This document shows, in pieces, positions 22,159 to 24,102 of a DNA stretch of 64,000 bases (positions are counted from its first letter, which is position 1; every line of letters begins with the position of its first letter). The position numbers and the translations under genes were made by a program. Under the pieces are notes generated by a model, which saw nothing but the letters and a program-made list of their open reading frames with translations, had not been told where the DNA came from and did not search any database. The DNA comes from Promethearchaeota archaeon. Lineage in GTDB: Archaea > Asgardarchaeota > Lokiarchaeia > Sigyniarchaeales > SOKP01. The DNA lies in NCBI GenBank assembly GCA_048940925.1, contig JBHLOC010000018.1:22501-86500 (forward strand), in the 5' to 3' direction.

Positions 22159-23748
22159 TTATTTATGGTTGATTTGTTCCCCATATCCTATTAGTCGATA
22201 ACGCCTATTAATTATACGAGAAATAGCATATATGAAATCTTCAGGGGGACAAATAGGAGGTGTAAGTTTTATAATAACACTATTTTTTAAAATTTTCGTA
22301 ACAGTCCCACCTGTTTTTTCCGTTCCTACTACAAGTAATAATTTCTCTCCATGTTTGAGAGGTTGAACTTTCATTTGAACTTCAGATCCAATAACTCTAT
22401 CTAAAAGATTTACATTCAGCTCAACTTCGCTAAGAATTTTAGGTAATGTTCCTATTTTTCCAACTAAATGGCCAATTAGATGATCTCCTTTTGTTAACGC
22501 GGGATCTAATTTTGTACCTAACCCTATGAGACCTCCAGGTTTAGCATTTTCCAAAGGATTATTTCCTTGGCTTATACTTACAACCGTAGATTTTAATGGT
22601 ACATACTGATCTTTAACTCGTATCCCCGGGCTAATTTCGATTTGGTCTCCAACTATTATTTTTCCTTTTAAAACAGAGCCCCCTATTACACCACCTTTTA
22701 AATCCTTAATTTCTTTACCTGGACGATTGATATCAAAGGATCTCGCAATTAAAAATTGAAATGACTCCTCCTCTTTAAATTTTGGAGTAGGAATAACCTC
22801 TTCAAAAGCTCTTATTACAAGATTTATATTCGCCCCAAAAACTGCCGATAAGGGTATAATTGGAGCATTTTCAGCAACAGTTCCTTTTATAAATTCTTTT
22901 ATTTGTTGAAAGTTCTCTAAGGCTTGTTCTCGAGAAACAGCATCAATTTTATTTTGTAATATAATAATATTTTTTATGCCCGCAATATTTAAAGCCGCTA
23001 AGTGTTCCCGTGTTTGAGGTTGAGGGCATTGCTCATCAGCTGCAATTAAAAGGCAAGCCCCATTCATTAATGATGCACCACTTAACATAGTTGCCATTAA
23101 TATCTCATGACCAGGCGCATCAACAAATGAGATATTTCTTCTAAATTCTAGATTTCCTTTACATTTTGGGCAAGAGAATCGAGCTTGTCCTTTTTCTCTA
23201 TCTTTTTCTGCAAGATAAGCCGTTGTATATTCATTACATTCGGAACAATAAAGAATTGAGGCATTAGAATACCCTAACTTTATTGAAATTCCTCTTTCTT
23301 GCTCTTCTGAGTGGCGATCAGTCCAATCTCCAGTTAGGGCTTTTACTAGGGTTGTCTATATGTTTCATGAAGGATTCCTTCAAAAAATTCCATGATCAAC
23401 ATGCCCTACAAGCCCTATATTACATTCTGCTTGTTGTTTGATTAATTCTTTTATCTTCTTAGCTTTCTCTTTCGAAACTGGCTTTGCTTTAGGTTTAGAT
23501 ATCGTTTCTTCTTTAATTATTTCTTTCACTTCATCAGATTGTTCTATTTTTTGACTTTTCTTTAGAATTTTTTTAGCATTTGTAATATACTTCTCTGCTG
23601 TTGCTTTTCCAACACCTTTTATTTTTAGCTTTAATAAATCCTTGGGTTCAGCATTTGCAAGTTTTTCAACAGAATCAATATTAGCAGCCTTTAATCTTTC
23701 TGCTGTTGCTTTTCCAATTCCACTTACATCTTCCAATTTATATGACAT
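22159..23748 (-). CDS. eif2g: translation initiation factor aIF2 gamma with N-terminal helix-hairpin-helix extension; two exons join(23748..23388,23357..22159), 519 aa
   Basis: Exon 1 ends QAECNIGLVGHVDHG-A; exon 2 begins [31 protein letters not shown], then CSEC/CPKC zinc knuckle, DAPGHE, QPQTREH, NKID, RSFDIN. No stop between 23357 and 22159. Confidence 0.93.
23358..23387 (-). other. 30-nt bulge-helix-bulge-type intron in aIF2-gamma mRNA
   Basis: Removing TTTTTTGAAGGAATCCTTCATGAAACATAT restores GGA AAG ACA ACC (GKTT). Both junctions fall after the 2nd nt of 3-nt bulges around a 4-nt central helix. Confidence 0.85.
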
Positions 23749-23877
23749 TATAGTTTTATTTTATATTATTTAGGTCCTATATATCTAGTTTCCTAAGAAC
23801 AATTAAGCTAGTATTTTTTATTAAATTATTCAATATATTGACTACTTTAAAAAGAATTAACTTTAAGATCAATTAAA

Positions 23878-24102
23878 TTATTTTGTTTTAATTGTTTTAA
23901 TCCCACCAGGTTTTTTTTCCATCTCTTTATAGGACACTCTTAAAAGGCTATCTACATAAAAAGTCGATAGTTTTTTACAGTGATTACACATAATATAGAC
24001 AGGTGCTGGATATTGAGTAGGATCTATATCATCCATCTCAATCTTAAATGTAATTTTAGCTTCACAGTGTGGACAAAAATTAAATCGGAGAGGCATATTC
24101 AT
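23878..24102 (-). CDS. small zinc-ribbon protein
   Basis: CPHC...CNHC. Confidence 0.7.
   Translation of the reverse strand: MNMPLRFNFCPHCEAKITFKIEMDDIDPTQYPAPVYIMCNHCKKLSTFYVDSLLRVSYKEMEKKPGGIKTIKTK

Follow-up and report, generated by a model that had tools for sequence, protein, structure and literature searches.

A putative 30-nucleotide BHB intron divides the P-loop lysine codon of aIF2-gamma in an Asgard archaeon

Introns of the bulge-helix-bulge (BHB) type in archaeal mRNA are best known from the cbf5 pre-mRNA of Crenarchaeota (Aeropyrum, Sulfolobus and Desulfurococcales; Watanabe 2002, Yokobori 2009 = PMC2738675), as was also stated in the original prediction for the locus described here. 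The two-subunit form of the tRNA-intron endonuclease, EndA, has been linked to a relaxed substrate range and to the splicing of cbf5 (PMC2738675, PMC5829648). In Haloferax volcanii, the HVO_1309 transcript carries a BHB intron in its 5' UTR, the processing of which by EndA has been shown both in vivo and in vitro (PMC7714728). For Asgard archaea, a 2026 preprint describes tRNA genes that are heavily interrupted, with non-canonical BHB introns being very abundant in the tRNA genes of some of these organisms, and makes no mention of mRNAs (bioRxiv 10.64898/2026.10.13.758758). In the searchable literature, BHB introns within coding sequence are reported only for crenarchaeal cbf5, to which the one haloarchaeal 5' UTR case can be added, and no mRNA BHB intron is reported for Asgard archaea or for aIF2. 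In eukaryotes, the HAC1 and XBP1 mRNAs undergo unconventional cytoplasmic splicing by IRE1 and a tRNA ligase, which is RtcB in animals; the XBP1 intron is 26 nt in length, IRE1 recognises two 7-nt stem-loops, and the splicing is regulated by stress.

Herein we describe a 30-nt insert in the gene for the initiation factor GTPase aIF2-gamma, located within the 64-kb stretch of DNA that was analysed (positions 1-64000, referred to as the window), and we put forward the proposal, which we consider very likely to be correct, that it is an archaeal BHB intron in the coding sequence of the aIF2-gamma pre-mRNA that is spliced by EndA and RtcB. Such an intron would resemble that of cbf5 in that it is short, lies in coding sequence, has a relaxed BHB with a cut between the second and third bulge residues, occurs together with a two-subunit EndA of broad specificity, and is patchy among relatives with both gain and loss. 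It differs from the cbf5 intron in its host, a translation initiation factor GTPase in which the P-loop is split, in its phylum (Asgard/Promethearchaeota), in being one of several in its genome, and in having its presence or absence tied to recombination of gene segments; moreover, cbf5 splicing has been shown experimentally, whereas the aIF2-gamma intron is known here from sequence alone. The two are not orthologous, as they are of the same class but reside in different genes (here one with GTP_EFTU and eIF2_C domains) and in different phyla. With the BHB introns of Asgard tRNA genes the insert shares the motif, the presumed enzymes and a similar size range, and its genome also looks rich in tRNA introns, but the host RNA is an mRNA. 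HVO_1309 is likewise an mRNA with a BHB intron, although in that case the intron lies in the untranslated leader and interrupts no reading frame. What the proposed reaction would have in common with HAC1/XBP1 is protein-only cutting and joining, a short mRNA intron, the machinery of tRNA ligation, and an active protein that depends on splicing; those systems use IRE1, whereas we propose EndA acting on a BHB. The host had been predicted from the DNA to be an Asgard archaeon, in agreement with its near relatives, which are filed as Promethearchaeota/Promethearchaeia.

The minus strand reads GTT GAT CAT GGA A, followed by the 30-nt insert (23387..23358) and then by AG ACA ACC, such that the lysine codon of GHVDHG^KTT is divided after its first base (phase 1; the caret marks the division here and the cut below). 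The length of the insert is a multiple of three and it contains in-frame TGA, TGA and TAG codons, the frame without splicing being G I F stop R N P S stop N I stop T T. As the first stop is encountered three codons into the insert, no functional aIF2-gamma would be produced without splicing. The upstream open reading frame (23748..23380, 122 aa) terminates in GHVDHGIF and a stop codon, while downstream an open frame of 396 aa extends from 23349 to 22162. When all excisions of 15-59 nt were tried at all four splits of the lysine codon, K-T-T-L-V was regained solely by an excision of 30 nt after the first lysine base, giving a spliced gene of 519 aa. The putative exon 1 (23388..23748, minus strand), defined by the open frame and the GHVDHG codons, holds 120 codons and the first base of the P-loop lysine codon; exon 2 (22159..23357, minus strand), defined by its open frame and its Pfam domains, starts with the last two lysine bases and continues as TTLVKAL... 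to the stop codon, with no start codon before 23097. The intron between them (23358..23387, minus strand, phase 1) is delimited by the unique excision, by the colinearity of intronless relatives and by covariation of its hairpin, and opens with the last base of the 5' bulge, continues through the hairpin h', of 10 positions and with a loop of 3 nt, into the sequence ACAT, and closes with bases 1 and 2 of the 3' bulge. The original prediction is upheld: the unspliced frame runs into TGA, TGA and TAG; only the 30-nt excision restores GHVDHGKTT; the gene is otherwise intact, with an open downstream frame and no second aIF2-gamma copy; and gene callers make two fragments of it, as the open reading frame list does.

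The insert is present, and spanned without gaps, in contigs of three other studies, and intronless relatives from the same metagenome runs cease to match the window at precisely 23388, where exon 1 ends. Samples that contain the organism are of sediment or mangrove origin, and among the runs listed for the locus none is of RNA. Its occurrence in independent assemblies and the point at which the relatives diverge together show that it is not an assembly artefact. Contigs of close relatives from one metagenome differ from the window within the intron at two places, 23358 and 23366, one being the second base of the 3' bulge and the other a change of a hairpin G.U pair to A-U, both compatible with the structure. 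The hairpin sequence of the intron has no other occurrence in the genome, for which reason a multi-copy mobile element was rejected.

The insert and its flanks can be folded as a BHB motif extending over 23351..23400 (minus strand), with the layout of helix, 3-nt bulge, 4-bp helix, 3-nt bulge and helix, as judged from the sequence, from pair counts on 29 orthologous sites and from the published cut rule (PMC2738675). In the order of transcription (all on the minus strand), the 5' strand of the exon helix h, GTTG(A)TC (23400-23394), pairs with GACAAC and is followed by the 5' strand of the central helix H, ATGG (23393-23390), and the 5' bulge AA^T (23389-23387), which would be cut between 23388 and 23387. 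The intron hairpin h' pairs 23386-23377 with 23373-23364 around an AAT loop (23376-23374), its 10 positions including one U.U mismatch and one G.U pair, and leads into the 3' strand of H, ACAT (23363-23360), the 3' bulge AT^A (23359-23357), with a predicted cut between 23358 and 23357, and the 3' strand of h, GACAAC (23356-23351). In the allele of this genome (G000), ATGG/ACAT forms three pairs and one G.A mismatch adjoining the 5' bulge, and h has one bulged A. EndA cuts "between the second and third residues of the bulges" (PMC2738675), and cuts after the second bulge base fall at exactly the junctions that GHVDHGKTT demands. The helices, bulges and AAT loop that had been predicted are all found in the sequence, and the predicted coincidence of the protein-derived junctions with the EndA cut rule holds when that rule is taken from the literature (PMC2738675). 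Under a strict descriptor (H at least 3/4, h' at least 9/10 and h at least 2/3 paired) with an intron length of 30, there are 1,065 fits in the 9.62 million positions of the genome, or about 1e-4 per pre-specified site. The folding energy is indistinguishable from that of shuffled sequences (z = -1.0 for 61 nt and -1.8 for 111 nt; the genome has 29.6% GC), and the minimum-free-energy fold adopts a slightly different register at the 5' bulge. Because the folding energy is weak, the case for a BHB rests on comparative evidence.

This evidence comes from the order as a whole, in which carriers were first sought through short open frames and their loci then fetched. Inserts of 29-32 nt at the identical site and phase occur in 29 of its 141 aIF2-gamma genes, all within one family, of which there are 134 genomes, and spread over at least nine genera, with six in the genus considered here. 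Four genomes of this genus have a closely similar insert of 30 nt in this position, and the insert is absent from 47 of its 53 other genomes, where the genes are colinear; in intronless alleles GHVDHGKTT is continuous. The 29 intron-bearing alleles all retain the GHVDHG codons, have the junction in phase 1 after the second bulge base, and share a layout consisting of exon ATGG (ACGG in one genome), a 5' bulge of A or T followed by A^N, a hairpin, one of CCAT, CTAT, ACAT, CCAC or CCGT, and a 3' bulge NN^A. A second intron, hinted at in five relatives by the entry "1 TAA inside", was rejected, since this TAA is the natural stop codon.

When one BHB structure was counted on the alignment of the 29 sequences, 83.4% of cells were paired compared with 71.8% in column shuffles (a value reached by 0 of 500) and 32-47% with the partners slid, 60 cells were changed on both sides compared with 20.7 +/- 3.5 expected in shuffles, and the covariation score was 0.302 compared with 0.121 (0 of 500), although it should be noted that the sequences are related rather than independent, so that these shuffle statistics are descriptive and overstate the support. 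Compensatory changes are seen in nine of the ten pairs of h'. The central helix is paired in 93.8% of cells; its fourth pair is G-C in 22 of 28 distinct orthologous sequences, and its pair 12-46 is U-A in 27 sequences and C-G in one, there being one genome in which a change of the exon histidine codon from CAT to CAC is compensated by a change of CCAT to CCGT in the intron. The exon-exon pair 6-54, between the third base of the valine codon and that of the second threonine codon, occurs as AU (6), GC (6), CG (2) and UA (1). The codons at the junction follow the same pattern, with histidine encoded by CAT in 25 of 26 intron alleles (the single CAC being the compensated one) versus 9 of 21 intronless alleles, and lysine by AAG in 20 of 26 versus 6 of 21. 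Codon choice and pairing together match the expectation under selection for an EndA substrate. Within the set of the four closest introns, no pair is changed on both sides and h is only about half paired (as counted with helix 1 one column out of register), and RNAalifold on the 29-sequence alignment recovers only three pairs, the G/C-richest. The comparison proposed with the original prediction did yield same-position inserts with compensatory changes, in 29 genomes, and the exon helix h that it described is present, but this helix is poorly kept among the four closest introns and draws its support only from the family as a whole.

The enzymes for such a reaction are encoded in the genome. 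There are two EndA paralogs (PF01974), on C58 and C18 of G000; one of them retains the catalytic Tyr, His and Lys residues and resembles most closely the catalytic subunit of the heterotetramer of Aeropyrum pernix. In the other, Phe and Thr replace the Tyr and His, and it is therefore a structural, non-catalytic subunit. RtcB is also present (E=9e-167). We considered whether other machinery, such as an unrecognised hairpin-specific nuclease or a ribozyme-like reaction, could remove the insert with the BHB-like geometry being incidental, given that EndA cleavage is here deduced from sequence and that the G000 BHB is imperfect. We regard this as improbable, however, because the parts that are conserved and covary are those of an EndA substrate, namely the 4-bp helix, the two 3-nt bulges and the flanking helices, because the junction follows bulge base 2 in 29 of 29 genomes, and because 30 nt is too short for known self-splicing introns.

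The gene itself is the sole aIF2-gamma in a genome rated 100% complete, the next matches being paralogs that are 26-31% identical. Within exon 1 are an N-terminal helix-hairpin-helix domain (HHH_5 in Pfam, E=7e-12), a linker rich in lysine and the beginning of G1 (GHVDHG). Exon 2 covers what remains of the G domain (Pfam GTP_EFTU, profile positions 44-187), domain II (GTP_EFTU_D2) and the C-terminal domain of eIF2-gamma (eIF2_C). The dN/dS ratio is 0.06-0.09 for exon 2 in lineages including intron-bearing alleles and 0.18-0.30 for exon 1 (the 5' part) among intron-bearing alleles, and by this measure the gene is in use and under purifying selection, and exon 1 belongs to it. These values bear upon the possibility that the locus is a pseudogene with a neutral inactivating insertion, aIF2-gamma function being supplied otherwise. 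The three in-frame stops and the two fragments seen by gene callers would fit a pseudogene, but the single copy, the lack of any other lesion, the constraint on both exons and the retention of the insert at one site in 29 genomes with structure-preserving substitutions make it highly improbable. The N-terminal extension of about 120 aa, with its HHH_5 domain and Lys-rich linker (window 23389-23748, minus strand), is an observation in its own right. Ordinary archaeal aIF2-gamma is about 410 aa in length; open frames of about 515-606 aa in most genomes suggest that the extension is widespread in the order. Directly upstream of aIF2-gamma, on the same strand, lies a gene for a 74-aa protein with two CxxC pairs that is zinc-ribbon-like (window 23878-24102, minus strand). 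No Rfam family was matched at E<=0.01 anywhere in the 64-kb window, and hence no 5S rRNA gene close to aIF2-gamma.

Two further readings would leave the 30 nt in the mRNA or remove it from the DNA, and to each we assign only a slight chance. The first is that the ribosome bypasses the insert, by hopping as in phage T4 gene 60, or reads through it, and the stop codon directly after the take-off region together with the hairpin is superficially like gene 60. The lysine codon, however, is split as A^AG, there is no landing codon matching the GGA take-off codon and hopping would not rebuild GKT, whereas read-through would require that both TGA and TAG be decoded and would place 10 residues where the P-loop lysine should be; in addition, some related introns, at 29 and 32 nt, have lengths that are not divisible by three. 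According to the second, the 30 nt are removed from the DNA by programmed excision or phase variation, or the two open frames give two polypeptides that assemble, for neither of which is there anything beyond the split frames themselves. Joints lacking the insert are found only in contigs of diverged relatives and in none from the same strain, and no flanking direct repeats exist that would allow precise excision; two chains could not form a P-loop divided between Gly and Lys, and exon 2 lacks a start codon until 23097. An intein was rejected on sequence grounds.

Returning to the BHB intron, its distribution within the genus is best understood from the mosaic structure of the gene. Sliding windows delimit a tract at about 23290..23880 (not assigned to a strand) that takes in the promoter region, all of exon 1 together with the intron, and the first 60 nt or so of exon 2. 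Inside the tract, G000 shows 5-17% differences to the intron alleles of the genus versus 27-37% to its sister G018, while outside it, on both sides, the order is reversed and G000 resembles G018. The whole-gene tree places G000 as sister to the intronless G018, with three other carriers clustering elsewhere. A tree of the 5' 480 nt unites the four G000-type alleles in a single clade (support 100%), and a grouping of G000 with G018 is rejected (AU p = 8e-5); in the 3' 1,100 nt, each of these alleles stands beside a different intronless relative and a grouping of the four is rejected (AU p = 4e-36). The tract and the split trees therefore indicate that intron presence and absence in the genus change through homologous recombination of the 5' segment. 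In G000 the switch point follows the intron site by about 60 to 90 nt, and in G054 by about 180 nt. G043 and G057 carry a different intron type and are near-identical to the intronless G012 downstream and about 30% different from it upstream, the switch lying 20 to 50 nt after the intron site. The gene is accordingly a recombination mosaic in several species of the genus (loci L004, L009, L024, L035 and L040), with three distinct switches situated 20-200 nt past the intron site, and these may be clustered simply because strong sequence conservation begins at the P-loop. As these comparisons have it, the intron is a family-wide polymorphism that, within the genus, has been transferred between species or lost along with the 5' segment. 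The foreign tract starts in the spacer between the gene for the 74-aa zinc-ribbon-like protein and aIF2-gamma. Genus g13, the intron of which looks similar, was considered as an intergeneric donor of the G000-type 5' cassette and rejected, its 5' region being only 68% identical and not grouping with the cassette.

Similar inserts occur elsewhere in the genome. A strict BHB scan followed by Pfam searches on the exon halves, which gives a lower bound and not a census, indicates that at least two other genes, and probably five, are split in mid-domain by the same type of element. In an EF-2 family GTPase, profile positions 3-35 and 49-187 of GTP_EFTU lie on either side of the insert, and in a methylmalonyl-CoA mutase (MM_CoA_mutase) the profile is divided into positions 2-54 and 58-512; the 5' junction of the mutase intron, CATGGAA^, is identical to that of aIF2-gamma. 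Genes for a GH38 mannosidase, a nucleoside/AMP phosphorylase and an AIR-synthase-like protein are likely also split by BHB-like inserts. The five inserts, 30-31 nt in length, are located in G000 at C32:27895-27924 (minus), C71:54629-54659 (plus), C43:76068-76097 (minus), C64:13177-13206 (minus) and C30:66095-66124 (plus), and the genome scan for other split genes that had been suggested with the prediction has thus returned two clean mid-domain cases and three likely ones. A loose BHB descriptor gave no genome-wide enrichment, with 5,132 ORF-fusing sites versus 5,168 expected, because gene boundaries dominate such "fusing" sites, and a stricter scan was confounded at short lengths by intergenic hairpins. 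In this genome rated 100% complete, aragorn finds only 34 tRNA genes, 22 of which are called with introns, which suggests that multiple or non-canonical introns conceal many others.

We now propose the following mechanism for the maturation of the aIF2-gamma mRNA, which must almost certainly be cut and rejoined by the enzymes of tRNA splicing. In the transcript, ATGG at the end of exon 1 and ACAT close to the intron's 3' end would form a 4-bp helix flanked by two 3-nt bulges, with the intron hairpin h' on one side and the exon-exon helix h on the other. A two-subunit EndA, made up of the catalytic and the non-catalytic paralog, would cut after the second base of each bulge, and RtcB would ligate the exons to create the AAG lysine codon of GHVDHGKTT and hence an mRNA for a protein of 519 aa, with the intron probably being released as a circle. 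The predicted spliced junction is CATGGAA-AGACAACC, and a spliced read would consist of ...GATCATGGAA joined to AGACAACCC... The cleavage, ligation and circle formation are steps that we infer, and they build upon direct observation of the insert, the unique repair of the frame, the conservation and covariation of the BHB, the selection acting on the gene as well as on synonymous sites in the exons, and the genes for the enzymes. The comparative support for the mechanism is about as strong as can be expected from sequence alone.

The feature is real, and is very probably an EndA/RtcB-spliced mRNA intron in a new gene and a new phylum, making an essential, single-copy translation factor dependent on a BHB intron that is not alone in its genome. 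For annotation, the consequence is that genes split by BHB introns are called as two fragments or as pseudogenes, and such split calls affect estimates of completeness and the metabolic inferences drawn from Asgard MAGs. For the evolution of introns, the family offers a same-site polymorphism across genera, the recruitment of exon synonymous sites into a splice motif, and turnover by recombination. The finding is also relevant to the question of how far mRNA splicing was already present in the archaeal relatives of eukaryotes before eukaryotes arose. Beyond the single gene, we see somewhat better than even chances that the aIF2-gamma intron is one piece of an mRNA-splicing regime extending across a family of Lokiarchaeia-type Asgard archaea. 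If so, dozens of protein genes, many of them for core machinery, would carry introns of about 30 nt that are spliced by EndA and RtcB, are situated in the most conserved motifs, are polymorphic between species, and are spread and lost by recombination. The production of aIF2-gamma, and hence translation initiation, would be coupled to the machinery of tRNA splicing, and protein-only splicing of mRNA would be routine in the closest archaeal relatives of eukaryotes.
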